Positions 8,141 to 15,421 of a stretch of DNA of 64,000 nt are shown here, piece after piece. Numbering within the stretch: position 1 is the first letter of the stretch; the number at the start of each line of letters is the position of its first letter. The notes below the pieces were generated by a model. It saw only the letters and a list, made by a program, of their open reading frames with translations, was not told where the DNA came from and ran no database searches. The position numbers and the translations under genes are program-made. Source of the DNA: a virus (taxonomy: Duplodnaviria > Caudoviricetes); the IMG/VR virus record IMGVR_UViG_3300024252_000005. One strand, given 5' to 3'.

Positions 8141-8206
8141 TTTCTTCCTTATTATAATATTTATAACGTATAATTAATATATTTAAATATCAAGGCAAAC
8201 ATTAAA

Positions 8207-8692
8207 ATGAAAAAACAAAAGCTGTCTAAAGAAGATTTTGAAAATGTCAAAACTATTGGTAATCTAAAACAATTGCTTGAAAGATTTTTAAAAGAAATAA
8301 GATCAAAAGATGCAAAGTCAGCTTTGACAAAAGCAATAGTTTCAGAAGTACCGTTTTTAGGTACAGCAAAAAACGTTAAAGATATTATAAAAAGGCTAGC
8401 AGTTAAAAGACCTGATAGTGAAAGACCTGATAACGCTCTCGGCGTGTTAGATATTGATGATGAATTAGAAAAAATTATATCTTCTAAGGTGTTAGAAAAA
8501 TTTTTAGACTTTCTGGTAATGTCTATAAACGACGATGATTCTACGCCTATAAGCAATTGGAATATAAATAGCGAATTAGAAGAATATCTAAAAGAGTTAT
8601 ATAAAGGTAGAACTATAACTGGCTTTAACAAAAAAAGAATGAAAACAACAGAAAGCGTGTTAAAAGAGTACATAAAAAACTATTTGATTTAA
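8207..8692 (+). CDS. Hypothetical protein with putative virion-type C-terminal motif
   Basis: Ends ESVLKEYIKNYLI, similar to the ends of other large proteins in this window. Confidence 0.7.
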   Translation: MKKQKLSKEDFENVKTIGNLKQLLERFLKEIRSKDAKSALTKAIVSEVPFLGTAKNVKDIIKRLAVKRPDSERPDNALGVLDIDDELEKIISSKVLEKFLDFLVMSINDDDSTPISNWNINSELEEYLKELYKGRTITGFNKKRMKTTESVLKEYIKNYLI

Positions 8693-8775
8693 ATCAATCC
8701 TCAAACTAATATTAACAATTTATTTTTATAAATTGAATTATAAAATATTATAATGAATTCTATATAGAGGAAAAA

Positions 8776-9843
8776 ATGAAGTCAAATAAAAATAAACTAA
8801 AAGAATCAAACAAGGCATTGAGCTTTGATGATGTAATATTAAAACCCAGATATTCTGATATTTTATCTAGAAAAGAAATAGATACAAGCATTAAACTGCC
8901 TGAACATATGCTTGATTTTGATATTCCACTAATTAGCAGTCCAATGTCAACTGTAACTGAAGCTTATATGTGTAACGCGATGTCTAATCTTGGAGGTTTA
9001 GGCATTATACATAGATATAATACAGTAGAATTCCAAACAAAATTATTATCTTACGTCTCTTGTCCAAATACAAAAGCAGCAGCAATAGGTGTTACAGGAG
9101 ATTTCAAAGAAAGACTAGCTTCACTTGTCAGTGAAGGTTTAACAATAGTCTGTATAGATGTTGCGCATGGAGATCATATATTAGTAAAGAATGCAATAGA
9201 ATTTATAAAGGAAAAATATCCAAGTCTTTTTATAATAGCAGGCAACGTAGCATCTGGCGAAGCTTACGCTAGATTGTCTTCTTGGGGAGCAAATGCAATT
9301 AGAACAAGTGTAGGTAGTGGAAGTATATGTACAACAAGAATACAAACAGGACACGGAATTCCAACTTTTCATGCTGTTGTTGACTGCTATAATGAAAAGA
9401 TTTTACTTGAAAAACAAAATAAACATGCTGCATGTATAATTGCAGATGGTGGAATTAAGAACAGTGGTGATATTGTTAAATCACTAGCTGCAGGTGCTGA
9501 CTTTGTAATGTTAGGCGCTATGTTAAGCGGGACAAAAGAAACACCAGGAAGAGTAATAACTAGTGATGAAGGCAAGAAAATAAAAAGATACAATGGAATG
9601 GCTTCAAAAGCAGCACAAAAAAACTGGAAAGGCTCATATTCATCAATAGAAGGTGTCTCTTCACACGTTCAGTATAAAGGAACGTTATCAAAAGTAGTTA
9701 ATGAAATAATGTCAAATGTTAGAAGCGGAATGTCTTATAGCAATGCTAGAAACTTAAAAGAGTTAAAAGACGTTGCTGATTTTATGATTCAAACTAACTC
9801 TTCTAATGTAGAAGGTAACCCACACATTTTTAATAAAAGGTAA
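8776..9843 (+). CDS. guaC: IMPDH/GMP reductase family enzyme without CBS domains, more likely GMP reductase
   Basis: SPMSTVTE, IDVAHG, GSGSICTTR (catalytic Cys), ADGGI, YNGMAS...IEGV; the flap is short and lacks the IMPDH Arg-Tyr dyad. Confidence 0.85.
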   Translation: MKSNKNKLKESNKALSFDDVILKPRYSDILSRKEIDTSIKLPEHMLDFDIPLISSPMSTVTEAYMCNAMSNLGGLGIIHRYNTVEFQTKLLSYVSCPNTKAAAIGVTGDFKERLASLVSEGLTIVCIDVAHGDHILVKNAIEFIKEKYPSLFIIAGNVASGEAYARLSSWGANAIRTSVGSGSICTTRIQTGHGIPTFHAVVDCYNEKILLEKQNKHAACIIADGGIKNSGDIVKSLAAGADFVMLGAMLSGTKETPGRVITSDEGKKIKRYNGMASKAAQKNWKGSYSSIEGVSSHVQYKGTLSKVVNEIMSNVRSGMSYSNARNLKELKDVADFMIQTNSSNVEGNPHIFNKR

Positions 9844-9847
9844 GAAA

Positions 9848-11119
9848 ATGCCAACAAAATTAGTATTAGGCCTCCAACATGGAGATGAAGGTAAAGGTAG
9901 AGTTGTAGATGATATCGCAGTCGACTGGGCAGACGTTGTTGTAAGATTTCAAGGAGGAGGAAATGCAGGCCATACTGTGTATGACTCTGACGGGAATAAA
10001 CATGTAACGCATATCCTGCCCGTAGGTGTAATAATCAGCAACGAGTTAAATACACTAAAGAAATATAAGTATAACGAAGTCAAAAGACATATAACTAACG
10101 TTATAGCAAGAGGCTGTGTATTAAATGTATTTGATCTATATAATGAAATAAAAGAATTAAATATAGATATAACACCTGCTGACTTACAAATATCAGGTTA
10201 CTGTCCCTTGATAGAACCTACACATATTTTAATTGATAGACTTAAGTATCAAGGAAAACTAGGGACAACTGCAAGAGGAATAGGTCCCGCATACTCAGAC
10301 TTTTATGCAAGAGACTCTATTTTATTTAAAGACTTAATTGAAGACCCGCATAACTCTTTAAATAAAATGCAAAACAAGTTCTTTAAATTCCAAACAGATC
10401 TAGTGCAAGAGGGTCATGTACATACTCGACTTTCAAATTATTCACACAACGATCTTTTAAATGATAATTTTGCTTTCTTTAACAGCTGGACTGATAATTT
10501 CTTAGAAAAGATTGAGTTTATTAAACAGTTTGTTGTAAAAGATGAAAGTTTAATTATTGATTTTTATAATGAAGGAAAAAATATATTGCTAGAAGGAGCG
10601 CAAGGTTGCGGCTTAAATATTCATTCTAATAATTACCCAGATGTCACATCTTCAGCACCTACTGTTGGAGGAGCATTAAACTCGACTGGTTTGAATCATA
10701 ATCAAATTGATGAAGTAATTGGTGTAATTAAAGCTTATAAGACAAAAGTAGGCACAGGTACTTTTCCAAGTTTATGTGATGAACAAAGCGGCGATACTTT
10801 AGCTAAAGAAGGCAATGAATTCGGAGCAACAACTGGTCGCCCAAGAAAGTGTGGATGGCTTGATTTAGATGAAGTAAATCAGGCAATTAAAATGAACGGC
10901 GTAGATCATTTATGCCTTATAAAGACAGATGTTTTTACAAATATAGAAAAGCCTTTCGTGTATTATAAAAAGAATCTAATGCAGATAGCTAAGATTAACA
11001 CCGTTTCAATCGAAGACAAATCATTTGTAAACCTATTAGAAGCAATTAAAGATAAAACTGGCGTAAACAGAATATCTTTTACGACTGGCCCAAAGAGAGG
11101 TGAAATTGTTTGGGACTAG
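9848..11119 (+). CDS. purA: Adenylosuccinate synthetase
   Basis: GDEGKG, GGGNAGHT, GTTARGIGPAY, EGAQG, EFGATTGRPRKCGWLD. Confidence 0.97.
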   Translation: MPTKLVLGLQHGDEGKGRVVDDIAVDWADVVVRFQGGGNAGHTVYDSDGNKHVTHILPVGVIISNELNTLKKYKYNEVKRHITNVIARGCVLNVFDLYNEIKELNIDITPADLQISGYCPLIEPTHILIDRLKYQGKLGTTARGIGPAYSDFYARDSILFKDLIEDPHNSLNKMQNKFFKFQTDLVQEGHVHTRLSNYSHNDLLNDNFAFFNSWTDNFLEKIEFIKQFVVKDESLIIDFYNEGKNILLEGAQGCGLNIHSNNYPDVTSSAPTVGGALNSTGLNHNQIDEVIGVIKAYKTKVGTGTFPSLCDEQSGDTLAKEGNEFGATTGRPRKCGWLDLDEVNQAIKMNGVDHLCLIKTDVFTNIEKPFVYYKKNLMQIAKINTVSIEDKSFVNLLEAIKDKTGVNRISFTTGPKRGEIVWD

Positions 11120-11283
11120 AAATAGGCAATTTAGCTGTTATAGAAAGCTGTGATTCTATTTGGAGATTTGCTAATACATCTTTGATTTGCTTAGGATATG
11201 ATTGGAGTGATATTGCTTCTATGGTGAAGAAATCAGAAGAATAGCAATTAGAGAAAAAGCATTAGAAAGAATGAAAATAAAAA

Positions 11284-12438
11284 ATGATACCAAGATATAA
11301 AAACAAAAAAATACATGAAATCTGGTCAACAGATAATAAGCTAAAAGTATGGCTTGGCGTAGAGTTAGCACATCTTTCAGCTTTAAATAGTAATATTATA
11401 GATAAAACTATAAACCAGCGCGAATATGAAACTATTGTTGACAATATTAAAATAGACAAAGATAGATGGAAGGAAATTGAAGCAGAAACTAAGCATGATG
11501 TTCAAGCTTTTGTTCAGATGCTAGAAGAGTTAATACCAGATAATAGTGGGCGATGGATACATTATGGATTAACTTCTTCAGATGTTCTAGACACTTCACT
11601 TACTATAATGTGTAGATATTCTATAAAAGAAATATTAAGTCACTGTGCTTCTTGTATTTACTATGTTGAGCAACTATGTAATAGAAAAGAATCTGAGTCT
11701 AGTATTTTAGCAAGAACACATGGCAAAGCTGCAGAAGTTCAAACTTATAAAGACATATTTACAAGATGGAAATATATGTTGCGAAGAGCATATGATGAAC
11801 TATCAAGATCACAAACAACTGTCAACAAAGGAAAGCTATCAGGCCCATCTGGAAACTATACTACTAACTCAGTTTTGAATGAAAACGTTGCTTTAAATAT
11901 CTTGGGACTTAGATCAACAAAAGCATCACAAATTATTCCTAGAGATATTTATTTAGATTATTTTTATGGAATTCTAAAAGTCATGCTAGCTGTAGAAAAA
12001 ATATCATATGATATTAGAATGTATAGTATCGATGGAATAAACGAAATGTCAGAAAGCTTTAGCAAAGGACAAAAAGGATCAAGTTCGATGCCACATAAAA
12101 AGAATCCCATAGGAACAGAGAATTTATGTGGCATTGTTAGATTATATAAATCATATTATCAAGCAGCAATTGATAATTGCTTCACACTCTTTGAAAGAGA
12201 CATATCCAATTCAGCTCCAGAAAGGATTATCTTTAAAGACTCAGCACATATTGCATGTTATTCTTTGGAAAGGTTAGCTAGCATTCTTAATCATTTAGTT
12301 ATAAAAGACGCCAACGCTGCTAAAAATATAGAGATATTTAACGAAAATATTGCCTCACAAGAAATAATGAATATTAAAATCAAAGAAGGCAAAAGCAGAA
12401 AAGAGTCGCACGATTTTTCACAAACTATGTCTAAGTAA
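11284..12438 (+). CDS. purB: Adenylosuccinate lyase (C-terminally short)
   Basis: TKHDV, HYGLTSSDV, ARTHG and the fumarate-lyase signature GSSSMPHKKNP. Confidence 0.95.
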   Translation: MIPRYKNKKIHEIWSTDNKLKVWLGVELAHLSALNSNIIDKTINQREYETIVDNIKIDKDRWKEIEAETKHDVQAFVQMLEELIPDNSGRWIHYGLTSSDVLDTSLTIMCRYSIKEILSHCASCIYYVEQLCNRKESESSILARTHGKAAEVQTYKDIFTRWKYMLRRAYDELSRSQTTVNKGKLSGPSGNYTTNSVLNENVALNILGLRSTKASQIIPRDIYLDYFYGILKVMLAVEKISYDIRMYSIDGINEMSESFSKGQKGSSSMPHKKNPIGTENLCGIVRLYKSYYQAAIDNCFTLFERDISNSAPERIIFKDSAHIACYSLERLASILNHLVIKDANAAKNIEIFNENIASQEIMNIKIKEGKSRKESHDFSQTMSK

Positions 12439-12471
12439 TATTTATTCTATATTAACTTTTCACAGAAAGAA

Positions 12472-12942
12472 TTGAGTATGAAAGAAAGATCACTAATAAG
12501 AGAATTCCTTGAGACAATGTACAAAGAACCTGCTATAGATATAGATACAGACTATAGCCTAGATTCTGTAAGCCACGATTCAAATCATGACATTGACCCA
12601 AATAGAGATGGTATAGTTAGTAAAGAAGATTTATACACGCATTTTGATTTAGACAATGATGGTATAGTAACAACTGATGAGTATGCAAATCATGTAGGCT
12701 TTCATTGTCAATATCCAGAATCTTTGGATCATTATAATACACTAAAGTCAAAATCTCATGAAGTTGTTCCCTGTAGAACTTCTTACGACTCTTGTTCACA
12801 GCACTTTTTGGGTAATACAGATGATATAGATATATATCTTTCACCATTAATGGATGCTACAGGCTCAACATGCAAAACTTCATCTGTTCAAGGACTTTTA
12901 GATGTATTACAGTCTTTGATAAATTGTGGAATGCTTAAATAA
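12472..12942 (+). CDS. EF-hand calcium-binding protein
   Basis: Two EF loops: DPNRDGIVSKED and DLDNDGIVTTDE. Confidence 0.75.
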   Translation: MSMKERSLIREFLETMYKEPAIDIDTDYSLDSVSHDSNHDIDPNRDGIVSKEDLYTHFDLDNDGIVTTDEYANHVGFHCQYPESLDHYNTLKSKSHEVVPCRTSYDSCSQHFLGNTDDIDIYLSPLMDATGSTCKTSSVQGLLDVLQSLINCGMLK

Positions 12943-12946
12943 ATTA

Positions 12947-12976
12947 CGTGTAAAGTTTTATTAATTATTTTATAAT
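12947..12976 (+). promoter_or_regulatory. Repeated phage promoter
   Basis: CGTGTAA-N17-TATAAT. Confidence 0.8.
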
Positions 12977-12997: not shown

Positions 12998-13195
12998 ATG
13001 ATTAAATTAGGTGACAAAGTTTACCACTGGCAAGAGATGAATAAAGTCGGTGTTATAGTAGAAGTTGTAAGTAACAAGAACAATCAAATGACTGTTGGCG
13101 GCACAACAGATGTTAGAATATATTATAAAGTAGAATACGAAAACGGAGAAATTAAAGTATATAACTCAGGTGATATACAAAAACACTATGAATAG
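12998..13195 (+). CDS. Small hypothetical protein (SH3/KOW-like pattern)
   Basis: IKLGDKVYH...GVIVEV; lies downstream of a repeated promoter. Confidence 0.65.
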   Translation: MIKLGDKVYHWQEMNKVGVIVEVVSNKNNQMTVGGTTDVRIYYKVEYENGEIKVYNSGDIQKHYE

Positions 13196-13700
13196 CTTGA
13201 TTTTTAATGTTATTAAAGAGTTTGCTATATCATATGCATTGCAAGATGAATTTTGTATGGAAACATATAAACAACTATCTGGAGTAGAAGCCACTCTAGA
13301 AAATAGAATTGTTTGTTCTGCTGTGATAAATGCTGCTAAAAGCCATGAAATAAAACCCATTAGAGGATTAAGCGTTGCATGGGTTGAAAGTAGATTGACT
13401 AGTCAACTGGTTCCTACTAAATCTAAATGTATTGGGCCAATGCAAATAAAAACAAAGTATTGGTGTAAAGGAAAAAATGTTGATAGCTGTGAACCAGTTA
13501 CTGATGGTGTTAAAGCTTTAAGATACTATATAAAACATTTCAAGCCTATAAGAAAAGCTTATTGCTTTTATAACGATTCAAGAAAACCAGAATGCAAAAA
13601 AGACTATATGACTAAATATGTTAAAAAAGTAGTTAAGGCTTACGGAAATATTAAAAAAATAGCTATTAAAAAGAAATTTAAATCTCTTAATATTCTATGA
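13188..13700 (+). CDS. Lytic transglycosylase (SLT)-like protein
   Basis: VAWVESR (catalytic Glu), GPMQI and AYCFYN motifs; start moved to ATG 13188. Confidence 0.75.
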   Translation: MNSLIFNVIKEFAISYALQDEFCMETYKQLSGVEATLENRIVCSAVINAAKSHEIKPIRGLSVAWVESRLTSQLVPTKSKCIGPMQIKTKYWCKGKNVDSCEPVTDGVKALRYYIKHFKPIRKAYCFYNDSRKPECKKDYMTKYVKKVVKAYGNIKKIAIKKKFKSLNIL

Positions 13701-13747: not shown

Positions 13748-14218
13748 ATGGAAAAAATTAATTATGAGGATCAATATTACTTTTTAAAATGTTTTATGGA
13801 GGACAATTACAATGTGATAGTAAGACAAGAATCTTACTCGGATGATGCTTGGTATCCTTTGTTAGATCTAATAACTATTAATTCAAATTTAAAGTTTAGA
13901 GAACGGTTTTTTACATTAGTACACGAATCAGGACATGCAATAATAGATACAGATGTAAGAAAATTAAAAGGTACATGTTTCAATAAAAATTCTCCAGACT
14001 CTATAAGATCTAAAAAATCTTACGTCCATAATTTAAACGAAGAAATACTTGCTTGGAATTATGGGAAACAATTGATAAGCAACATAGGTCTAGCTTATGA
14101 TGAAGAAAAGTTTGAAGAGTACATGACAGACTGTATAATGTCTTATGTAAAATCAGGATTAGATTCTATCTATGGGAAAAACATAGATGTTAGCTCTATT
14201 AATACAAAATACGTGTAA
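13748..14218 (+). CDS. HExxH metallopeptidase-like protein (ImmA/IrrE-like)
   Basis: TLVHESGH and downstream EEILAW. Confidence 0.7.
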   Translation: MEKINYEDQYYFLKCFMEDNYNVIVRQESYSDDAWYPLLDLITINSNLKFRERFFTLVHESGHAIIDTDVRKLKGTCFNKNSPDSIRSKKSYVHNLNEEILAWNYGKQLISNIGLAYDEEKFEEYMTDCIMSYVKSGLDSIYGKNIDVSSINTKYV

Positions 14219-14260: not shown

Positions 14261-14593
14261 ATGTCATATTCTAAAAGCGATTTAAAACAAATTAAAAAAC
14301 AATTATTAAAGAGCAATCCACAAGCACTTAAAAGAAAAATAAAAACAGCATCTAAGTCTGTAGCTAGAAAAGAAATAAAGGCTAGTTATAAGAAACCAAA
14401 AAGCGTAGTTCAATGGAATTTTGATGTCAATGATCTAATTGAATTAAAAGATAGTTCTGGTATGTCTGGAAACATAGGCTTAATTGTTTCTGACTATATT
14501 TATCATTCTAGCAGAGTAGAAAAAAATAATTTCTTCGTGTTAGTAAACAATGCTGTTAGACAGATAGAAGGTAGATATTTAAAGAAAGTATGA
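14261..14593 (+). CDS. Hypothetical protein
   Basis: ORF has its own promoter copy. Confidence 0.7.
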   Translation: MSYSKSDLKQIKKQLLKSNPQALKRKIKTASKSVARKEIKASYKKPKSVVQWNFDVNDLIELKDSSGMSGNIGLIVSDYIYHSSRVEKNNFFVLVNNAVRQIEGRYLKKV

Positions 14594-14671: not shown

Positions 14672-15421
14672 ATGAAGTTAAACATTAAAAGAGACGAAAT
14701 TGTTTTCGGTACAAATATTCTCGATATCAGAATTCCAGAAAAACTTCGAGAAAGACACCAATGTGGAATACCCTATCTAGACACAGCGTTTGGTGGTCAA
14801 GGCTTTACTCCTTCAACTATATCGCTTTTTACAGGAGAGCCTGGTGCCGGCAAAACAACTTTAATGTTAACTTTAGCTAATGCGCTTACAGCTGAAGGTC
14901 ATGTTTGCTTGTTTAATACAGCAGAAGAGAGCCTTTATCAAGTAAAACTTACTTGTGAAAGGTTAGATCTAGATGCCGGGTTTATCGCCGGTCAAGAATC
15001 ATATGTTCCAAGACTACTAAAGAACTGTGAGGTTCTAAGAAAAAGGACTAAAGGAAAGCATTTCTTTTTAATTGTAGATTCTTTACAGACGCTTAATGAT
15101 GGAAAATATGGTGAAGAAAGTACTAATAGCCATTCAGCAGTTAGATCACTTCAAATGCTGACTGATTATGCTAAAGAACATTACATAAACATTATATGTA
15201 TTGGTCAAGTAAATAAAAGTGGCTCAATGGCAGGTTCTCAAAAGCTCAAACATATGGTAGATGCTATGCTACACTTATCAATAGAGAAAAAAGATGAAGA
15301 CTTTAAAGGGCTTAGGGTTCTAGAGACTGTAAAGAATAGATTCGGAGGAGCTGGCTGGACATTCTTTCTAGATCTTAAGAAAGAAGGTTTCGAAGAAGTA
15401 GCAAGGGTTGGAGTTAAATAA
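14672..15421 (+). CDS. radA: RadA/Sms-like RecA-family ATPase (ATPase domain only)
   Basis: GEPGAGKTT, IVDSLQ and the RadA-specific KNRFG; no Zn finger or Lon-like domain. Confidence 0.88.
   Translation: MKLNIKRDEIVFGTNILDIRIPEKLRERHQCGIPYLDTAFGGQGFTPSTISLFTGEPGAGKTTLMLTLANALTAEGHVCLFNTAEESLYQVKLTCERLDLDAGFIAGQESYVPRLLKNCEVLRKRTKGKHFFLIVDSLQTLNDGKYGEESTNSHSAVRSLQMLTDYAKEHYINIICIGQVNKSGSMAGSQKLKHMVDAMLHLSIEKKDEDFKGLRVLETVKNRFGGAGWTFFLDLKKEGFEEVARVGVK

Follow-up and report, generated by a model that had tools for sequence, protein, structure and literature searches.

Can a phage turn guanylate into adenylate with enzymes of its own, independently of its host? This question is raised by three adjacent genes of an uncultured marine phage (Caudoviricetes), which we studied in a window of 64,000 nucleotides (~31% G+C), the whole stretch of DNA analyzed here, taken from the IMG/VR record IMGVR_UViG_3300024252_000005. 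The genes encode a member of the IMP dehydrogenase/GMP reductase (IMPDH/GMPR) superfamily, an adenylosuccinate synthetase (PurA), and an adenylosuccinate lyase (PurB). An initial annotation had read them as an operon for the conversion of guanosine monophosphate (GMP) to adenosine monophosphate (AMP), and all three claimed open reading frames (ORFs) do exist where it had placed them, on the plus strand (table 1). Judged from the protein sequences and from gene context, the trio probably represents a guanylate-to-adenylate conversion module, with the route GMP to inosine monophosphate (IMP) to adenylosuccinate to AMP. The reactions and the superfamilies involved are already known; the clade to which the first enzyme belongs is uncharacterized.

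Active-Site and Cofactor-Pocket Features of the First Enzyme

The product of the first gene matches the IMPDH/GMPR profile PF00478 from end to end (E = 8e-95). Its catalytic residues Cys185, Thr187, and Glu292 align with those of the reference enzymes (Cys186, Thr188, and Glu289 in human GMPR) and are invariant in 40 members of its clade, throughout which the ribose-binding Asp224 of the DGG motif is invariant as well. This Cys/Thr/Glu set is common to IMPDH and GMPR; the features that discriminate between the two enzymes, namely the flap, an N-terminal Ser-Arg, the lost GuaB tail, and the missing CBS domains, all appear GMPR-like in the phage protein. There is no CBS/Bateman insert in the barrel, and the protein is correspondingly small (355 amino acids vs. 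488 in GuaB).

The flap comprises residues 272–294 (YNGMASKAAQKNWKGSYSSIEGV), and its description in the initial annotation, as a short segment without the Arg-Tyr dyad, holds to the letter. The number of residues between GM and EG is 16 in the phage flap, compared with 19 in Escherichia coli GuaC and 26 in E. coli GuaB; the DRYF of GuaB, which contains the Arg-Tyr pair, is absent, and a Ser occupies the position of the Arg in the phmmer alignment. The phage segment, GMASKAAQKNW-KGS---YSSIEGV, lines up with the flaps of E. coli GuaC and human GMPR2 and with that of the Bdellovibrio/Legionella type, GMASREAQEDF-MGGMADWKTAEGV, and its layout is that of GuaC: an aromatic residue, then a Gly, then a Tyr at −4 from the Glu of Glu-Gly. 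A truncated flap without the Arg-Tyr dyad is a described property of GMPR, and loss of Arg418 slows hydrolysis by IMPDH ~1000-fold (PMC2525682). As far as can be read from these motifs, the hydrolysis machinery found only in IMPDH is absent from the first enzyme.

The cofactor pocket presents a similar picture. The subsite for the adenosine of NAD in bacterial IMPDH is formed by Leu26', Pro27', Ala441', and Tyr445' and resembles that of GMPR (PMC4342496). At its N-terminus the phage enzyme has Leu-Ser-Arg (Ser31-Arg32), as do the E. coli, human, and Firmicute GMPRs, and at this position the canonical GuaB proteins of our comparison set always have Leu-Pro. The phage protein stops just past E-G-x-P-H and lacks the GuaB tail ..ITKE(A/S)PNY, with Ala441'/Tyr445'.

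Inteins were observed in 18 of 150 representative homologs of the first enzyme, at two sites. In 16 of these (P0124, P0128, P0131, P0140, P0153, P0156, P0157, P0159, P0166, P0167, P0176, P0183, P0204, P0235, P0249, and P0271) the intein lies between Gly182 and Ser183 in the catalytic Cys loop (GSG/C...HN/SICSTR), and the elements are either mini-inteins of ~135 amino acids or ~370 amino acids long. The other two (P0160 and P0267) have theirs at the flap base, between Ala276 and Ser277.

The Second and Third Enzymes

The second gene product matches PF00709 (E = 1.5e-90). It retains Asp13, Lys16, Asn38, His41, Thr129, Arg143, Gln224, Thr239, and Arg303 (E. coli numbering), together with the P-loop GDEGKG and the guanine-specific (N/T)KxD, and an alignment with E. 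coli PurA shows its C-terminal part to be divergent and shortened. We considered whether it could be a PurZ and rejected this reading: Ser replaces Asp13 in 100% of phage PurZ/PurZ0 (PMC12884076), whereas Asp13 is kept here, and the score against the PurZ model NF038379 is 108.6, far below the cut-off of 300, so that the protein is a PurA. It also carries an insert of 16 amino acids (residues 64–79, following PVGVI; SNELNTLKKYKYNEVK) that is found neither in its close relatives nor in E. coli PurA.

The third gene product matches Lyase_1 and the purB model TIGR00928 (E = 2e-84). It could be aligned over residues 1–381 with the adenylosuccinate lyases of Bacillus anthracis and Thermotoga maritima, and has the two catalytic His motifs, HYGLTSSD and RTHG, and the signature loop of the fumarase/aspartase superfamily (SSxMPxKxN), as GSSSMPHKKNP.

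Codistribution with PurA and GuaA among Viruses

Relatives of the first enzyme number in the thousands in metagenomic data; the best 120 are 66–95% identical to it and come from marine data. The nine loci examined from its own phage family (L001–L006 and L017–L019) all show the trio in synteny, and the order of IMPDH-like gene, PurA, PurB, and a protein with EF-hands is kept on relatives' contigs of 12–238 kb. One branch of the family has an additional ORF of 218 amino acids, without a Pfam match, between the IMPDH-like gene and purA (L001 9064–9720; also in L002–L004).

To describe the wider context, we used 80 IMG/VR loci that encode the first enzyme, with a radius of 10 kb, and 20 long viral records. 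A PurA homolog lies within this radius in 11 of the 80 loci, three of which belong to family members and eight to other lineages; the PurA proteins of these eight are short (328–352 amino acids), all have Asp13, and score as PurA and not as PurZ. Among the long records, nine encode a PurA, including four of the five that are at least 75% complete, and PurB is confined to the family member. Genes of the PurA family are uncommon in viruses, with 481 homologs in 53,887 genomes (PMC12884076). The statement in the initial annotation that the operon contains no guaA can be extended well beyond this phage: GuaA was found neither in the block of the window, nor within 10 kb in any of the 80 loci, nor in any of the 20 long records. 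A pairing with PurA in the absence of GuaA fits an enzyme whose product is IMP; it does not fit an IMP-consuming enzyme, which would depend on GuaA for the next step.

No match to the region was found by blastn among 50,697 phage records, and hence no cultured relative, and full-text literature searches returned no description of a phage GMPR–PurA–PurB module.

CBS-less Homologs in Cellular Genomes

Homologs without CBS domains are also encoded in cells, including those of Bdellovibrionota, Myxococcota, Cloacimonadota, and Melainabacteria. Among the genomes that we checked, those of Bdellovibrionota and Myxococcota encode a canonical GuaB beside guaA and the CBS-less paralog elsewhere. The Melainabacteria have a GuaB3-like gene beside or near guaA (checked in four of six genomes), again with the CBS-less paralog elsewhere, and the Cloacimonadota carry both the canonical and the CBS-less form. 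A GuaB-type gene linked to guaA together with a separate CBS-less paralog is what one would expect of a GuaB accompanied by a GuaC. No purine genes were found within 6 kb of the cellular CBS-less homologs. In Patescibacteria, Gracilibacteria, and Woesearchaeota the enzyme is present, and GuaA and PurA were undetected in assemblies that are small and incomplete, which makes these genomes uninformative.

The cellular group with short flaps includes a protein of known structure, Legionella pneumophila PDB 3R2G, which was deposited as an "IMPDH" and scores 385 bits to a Bdellovibrio homolog (group L182–L185). This label is probably wrong, since in the tree described below the group joins E. coli GuaC, and since it coexists with a guaA-linked canonical GuaB.

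Placement of the First Enzyme by Score, Fold, and Phylogeny

A number of results weigh against the assignment of the first enzyme as a GMP reductase, and of the trio as a complete pathway. None of the curated NCBIfam cut-offs, whether of GMPR or of IMPDH models, is reached by the first enzyme, and its score against the IMPDH model (TIGR01302, 262.7 bits with a cut-off of 481.5) is higher than those against the GMPR equivalog models (NF003470, 211.1/397; TIGR01305, 191.9/492; NF003966, 206.4/344; TIGR01306, 166.2/466). The best match in a sequence search of the PDB is a CBS-deleted bacterial IMPDH with 242 bits, compared with 166 for a GMPR. A Foldseek search with the AlphaFold model (predicted local distance difference test score of 93) returned IMPDH catalytic domains for every one of its top 50 matches (template modeling score ~0.88), although it should be noted that the fold cannot separate IMPDH from GMPR activity. 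Columns separating GuaB from GuaC give a mixed signal from few positions, with 2 of 11 GuaC-like and 3 of 11 GuaB-like, and the contact that Arg32 may make with the 2'-phosphate of NADPH is a suggestion of our own rather than a published one. As to the partners, PurA stays below its curated cut-offs (NF002223, 297.5/402 bits; TIGR00184, 267.8/395.6 bits), as does PurB (283.7 vs. 326.2 bits for TIGR00928), which covers positions 1–382 of the 436 in the profile and lacks the C-terminal ADSL_C region of ~50 amino acids. The initial annotation had called both genes canonical, which is borne out for their families and key motifs and not for their scores or for the length of PurB; the relatives' PurB proteins measure 383–387 amino acids throughout, so that the truncation is a trait of the family and not damage. 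Finally, most members of the viral clade stand alone among unrelated small phage genes.

We also calculated a quick maximum likelihood tree of 83 sequences, with support from the Shimodaira–Hasegawa-like approximate likelihood ratio test (SH-aLRT). The phage family forms a fully supported clade inside a starred, essentially viral clade of 39 rows, and the canonical GuaB proteins form a starred clade of their own. E. coli GuaC and the GMPR of phage XacN1 group with the CBS-less proteins of the Bdellovibrio type (SH-aLRT 90), and the Firmicute GuaC proteins are on a separate long branch. The first enzyme lies inside neither of the two GuaC clades, and the viral clade is found on the GuaB side of deep branches that are short and weak (SH-aLRT 87–88), which adds to the points against the assignment. 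The tree thus placed the enzyme neither with GuaC nor with canonical GuaB, and instead in a mostly viral clade with weak deep branching. The first enzyme accordingly falls outside both classical GuaC families and GuaB, and belongs to a distinct clade. This clade is large and uncharacterized: PHROG 9582 labels it just "dehydrogenase," and metagenome pipelines "IMP dehydrogenase." Because the protein is outside the known GuaC families and nearer to IMPDH overall, its activity can at present only be inferred.

Base Composition and Host

The initial annotation had explained the module as the means by which an AT-rich phage rebalances the nucleotide pool of a G-rich host. Viral contigs with the enzyme span 27–48% G+C (median 42%), and those that also have PurA 27–45%, a spread that weakens this rationale and counts against it as the purpose of the module. 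The complete trio was observed only in the most AT-rich family, with 27–32% G+C. Stable RNA is comparatively G-rich even in an AT-rich host.

A family relative (G006, the record of locus L018; 211 kb, with a locus of 27% G+C) encodes a protein of the dCMP/cytidine deaminase family at 162916–163236. The presence of the trio in the AT-rich family and the deaminase of this relative would together fit a shift of the nucleotide pool towards A and T.

A host in the Pelagibacteraceae was considered from the best cellular match (L097, 53% identity), which lies on a 7-kb single-cell contig; this match was not used, as the contig has 44% G+C and the protein belongs to another clade. PHROG and Pfam scans of the other large ORFs of the window gave almost nothing that could point to host or lineage, and a search of sequencing runs returned seawater metagenomes only, with no single-cell or host-labeled run.

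Proposed Pathway and Alternative Explanations

In the proposed pathway, Cys185 of the first enzyme would attack C2 of GMP and ammonia would leave via a relay of Thr187 and Glu292, after which the thioimidate intermediate would be reduced by NAD(P)H to give IMP. PurA would then combine IMP with aspartate to form adenylosuccinate, using GTP, and PurB would release fumarate to yield AMP; for both of these enzymes the family is clear from sequence and the activity is presumed from it. Having the three genes together would make the route independent of host enzymes, and its purpose may be to shift purines released from the RNA, DNA, and nucleotide pools of the host from guanine to adenine nucleotides, for which a genome of 31% G+C has the greater need. 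The motifs of the first enzyme, its co-occurrence with PurA, and the lack of GuaA speak for this route as the initial annotation had envisaged it; the position of the enzyme outside the known GuaC families, and its greater overall nearness to IMPDH, speak against.

The first enzyme might instead be a minimal IMPDH that converts IMP to xanthosine monophosphate (XMP). With this enzyme and PurA, the phage would have both IMP-consuming enzymes, and would thereby boost the general purine supply and leave the amination of XMP to the GuaA of the host. Bacterial IMPDH catalytic domains are indeed its nearest matches in sequence and fold, the viral clade is, weakly, nearer to GuaB in the tree, and water activation through Thr321/Glu431 works without Arg418; as an ancestral IMPDH could hydrolyze E-XMP* via Thr and Glu alone, a slow IMPDH activity is conceivable even for the phage protein (PMC2525682), which is a further argument against our assignment. 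We nevertheless regard this reading as rather improbable: the Arg-Tyr dyad is missing from a flap that is shorter even than that of GuaC, the Leu-Pro and the C-terminal Tyr and Ala of the NAD adenosine pocket (PMC4342496) are absent, GuaA is encoded in none of the 80 loci or 20 long records among which PurA recurs, and the guaA-linked gene in the Bdellovibrionota and Myxococcota genomes checked is the canonical GuaB, not the CBS-less form.

Other alternatives leave the enzyme a GMP reductase or change its substrate. The conversion of GMP to AMP might serve to rebuild or maintain the adenylate pool (ATP and dATP) in a very small marine host under starvation, or to counter host defenses that destroy ATP or dATP. 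Nucleotide-depleting defense systems exist, the enzyme is found, alone or with PurA, in viral contigs across the whole range of G+C given above, and cellular homologs occur in predatory and other bacteria (Bdellovibrionota and Melainabacteria) that are known or suspected nucleotide scavengers. Such a purpose seems unlikely to us, given that only the most AT-rich family was found to have the full trio, that the dCMP deaminase of the relative fits an A/T shift of purines and pyrimidines alike, and that no data link the module to a defense system. Least probable, and in our view quite improbable, is the use of nonclassical substrates, either a deoxynucleotide route from host DNA (dGMP to dIMP to dAMP) or a nonstandard purine. 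This idea could draw on the fact that no curated model covers the clade of the first enzyme, on the divergence of PurA and PurB below their cut-offs, and on PurZ as an example of a PurA homolog that evolved to use deoxynucleotides (PMC12884076). It is opposed by the invariant Asp224 of the DGG motif, which binds the ribose, and by the retention in PurA of Asp13, Arg303, and the remaining ligands of IMP and GTP, with no PurZ signature; nor was a gene of the DatZ/MazZ/DpoZ type identified among the neighboring ORFs scanned, with no such Pfam match in the ORFs at 8161–8673 (minus strand), 12472–12942, 13170–13700, 13748–14218, and 14672–15421, and no significant match for those at 12998–13195 and 14261–14593. 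The conversion of guanylate to adenylate is the reading that we retain as probable, and the benefit of an AT-rich genome would be its presumed purpose.

Organization of the Locus

The initial annotation described an operon of three genes. The trio is indeed co-directional, and it is part of a longer co-directional block that also takes in the ORF directly upstream and the EF-hand ORF (table 1). purA starts 4 nucleotides after the first gene and purB follows after a spacer of 164 nucleotides, in which no terminator-like site was found. No phage-type promoter (GTGYAA..TATAAT) is present 5' of the purine module. Given the flanking co-directional ORFs, the terminator-free spacer, and a next phage-type promoter only at 12948, the trio therefore belongs to a longer co-directional unit, from roughly 8207 or 8776 to 12942, whose last gene is possibly that of the EF-hand protein. 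The sigma-70-like match at 8725 is one to the consensus only, and such matches are just as numerous in the region as expected from shuffled sequence.

Table 1. Features of the Purine Module and Its Flanks, with Positions in the Window
Feature	Position	Strand	Remarks
ORF of 161 amino acids without assigned function	8207..8692	+	Co-directional, directly upstream of the IMPDH/GMPR-family gene
Sigma-70-like promoter match, TTTATA-18-TATAAT	8725..8754	+	22 nucleotides 5' of the first gene
Ribosome-binding site, GAGG	8768-8771	+	Precedes the first gene
CBS-less IMPDH/GMPR-superfamily enzyme, 355 amino acids, predicted GMP reductase	8776..9843	+	PF00478
Adenylosuccinate synthetase PurA, 423 amino acids	9848..11119	+	PF00709
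Spacer ORF of 44 amino acids, coding status doubtful	11110..11244	+	Between purA and purB
Adenylosuccinate lyase PurB, 384 amino acids	11284..12438	+	Lyase_1, TIGR00928
Protein of 156 amino acids with two EF-hand calcium-binding loops	12472..12942	+	Conserved neighbor after purB
Phage-type promoter, GTGTAA..TATAAT	12948..12976	+	Motif match; starts the next unit

The EF-hand protein has two canonical loops (DPNRDGIVSKED and DLDNDGIVTTDE) and follows purB directly in relatives too, with matching positions in L001 and L005. At the other end of the block, the ORF at 8207–8692 is probably the real gene and the overlapping ORF on the minus strand (8161–8673; 170 amino acids, hydrophobic, and of low complexity) probably spurious, as the former encodes a plausible charged protein and relatives have a plus-strand gene at the same place (L005 7381–7920). 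This gene is not kept across the family, and L001 has a UvdE at that position.

The spacer ORF before purB is unconserved; some relatives have an ORF of 52–60 amino acids there, which by eye shares no evident similarity with it. The same sequence received two different gene calls in this region, as a PurB of 437 amino acids in L005 (10230–11543), read through an in-frame TGA that fuses an upstream ORF of 52 amino acids, and as two genes in L006 (10230–10388 and 10392–11543). The ORFs of at least 150 codons in the window end in TAA (27), TGA (8), or TAG (6), and with eight long ORFs ending in it TGA looks like a normal stop here.

A search of the window with the pattern GTGYAA-N(8-22)-TANAAT gave 32 matches, which are dense on the minus strand between 42103 and 63506 (the 42–64 kb region); plus-strand matches are at 12948, 14213, 14602, and 15768. 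A library from a seawater metatranscriptome contains a contig of 261 nucleotides that is identical to positions 11148–11408 and bridges the spacer into the start of purB. No RNA-library contigs were found over other parts of the module, and as carry-over of DNA is possible, we do not take this contig as evidence of expression.

Implications for Purine Metabolism in Phages and Bacteria

The clade of CBS-less proteins with short flaps contains thousands of sequences, many with inteins in the catalytic loop. We tentatively propose, as a serious possibility though one short of probable, that these proteins constitute a third functional family within the IMPDH/GMPR superfamily. Its members would be minimal GMP reductases, very common in marine phages, and would also supply the GuaC that is missing from Bdellovibrionota, Melainabacteria, Legionella, and bacteria like them. 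In that case, the conversion of guanine to adenine nucleotides would be a strategy used widely by viruses of the ocean, and the phage family studied here would have the only version with all three enzymes and full independence of the host. A bolder variant of this proposal would have the phage enzymes accept deoxynucleotides as well.

Should the assignment hold, a large unannotated clade of enzymes would receive a name, and the well-known reshaping of nucleotide pools by phages through dCMP deaminase and thymidylate synthase would gain a purine counterpart. As a compact cassette, the three genes would lend themselves to direct activity tests in purine mutants of E. coli, and the metabolism reconstructed for predatory and other bacteria with a seeming lack of guaC would need to be corrected.

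Comparison with Known Systems

The closest known sequences to the first enzyme are the catalytic domains of bacterial GuaB (CBS-deleted B. anthracis and Clostridium perfringens; 37–41% identity, 242 bits), which share its Cys loop and phosphate-binding motifs and give the best fold match. Unlike GuaB, the phage enzyme has no Bateman domain, Arg-Tyr dyad, long flap, Leu-Pro, or ..PNY tail, and its gene has no guaA neighbor. The CBS-less paralogs of cells (3R2G and the proteins of Bdellovibrionota, Myxococcota, and Melainabacteria), for which we found no biochemical characterization in the literature, are like the phage enzyme in size (330–370 amino acids), CIDVAHG motif, short flap, and Ser-Arg. 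They are 38–44% identical to it and fall into separate clades, their flap is three residues longer, and their genes, unlike that of the phage, have no linkage to purA or purB.

Among phages, GuaC proteins have been recognized in jumbo phages (Xanthomonas phage XacN1, Stenotrophomonas phage RAS14, and gp120 of Bacillus phage G), where a large phage likewise encodes a GMP reductase for nucleotide-pool metabolism. These cluster with classical GuaC in the tree and are ~31–32% identical to the window enzyme, and the records of XacN1, RAS14, and phage G are absent from the PurA matches listed. The PurZ/PurZ0 proteins of the 2-aminoadenine pathway offer another parallel, as a PurA homolog that, together with PurB, re-routes guanine nucleotides to an adenine-type base. 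PurZ differs from the window PurA in that it has Ser for Asp13, uses dGMP, and is accompanied by DatZ/MazZ/DpoZ or DutZ/DmtZ.

The closest functional parallel would be classical GuaC (E. coli, human GMPR1/2, and the Firmicute proteins), a CBS-less (beta/alpha)8 barrel of ~350 amino acids that has the catalytic Cys/Thr/Glu in common with the phage enzyme, as well as a truncated flap with the same motif layout and no Arg-Tyr dyad, and the N-terminal Ser-Arg. Compared with E. coli GuaC, the phage enzyme is only ~32% identical, its flap is three residues shorter, and its C-terminus keeps an E-G-x-P-H like that of IMPDH. The guaC of cells usually stands by itself and is regulated, whereas the phage gene is clustered with purA and purB. 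In cells the IMP produced by GuaC is fed to PurA and PurB as a route from guanine to adenine nucleotides, which is the route that we propose for the phage.

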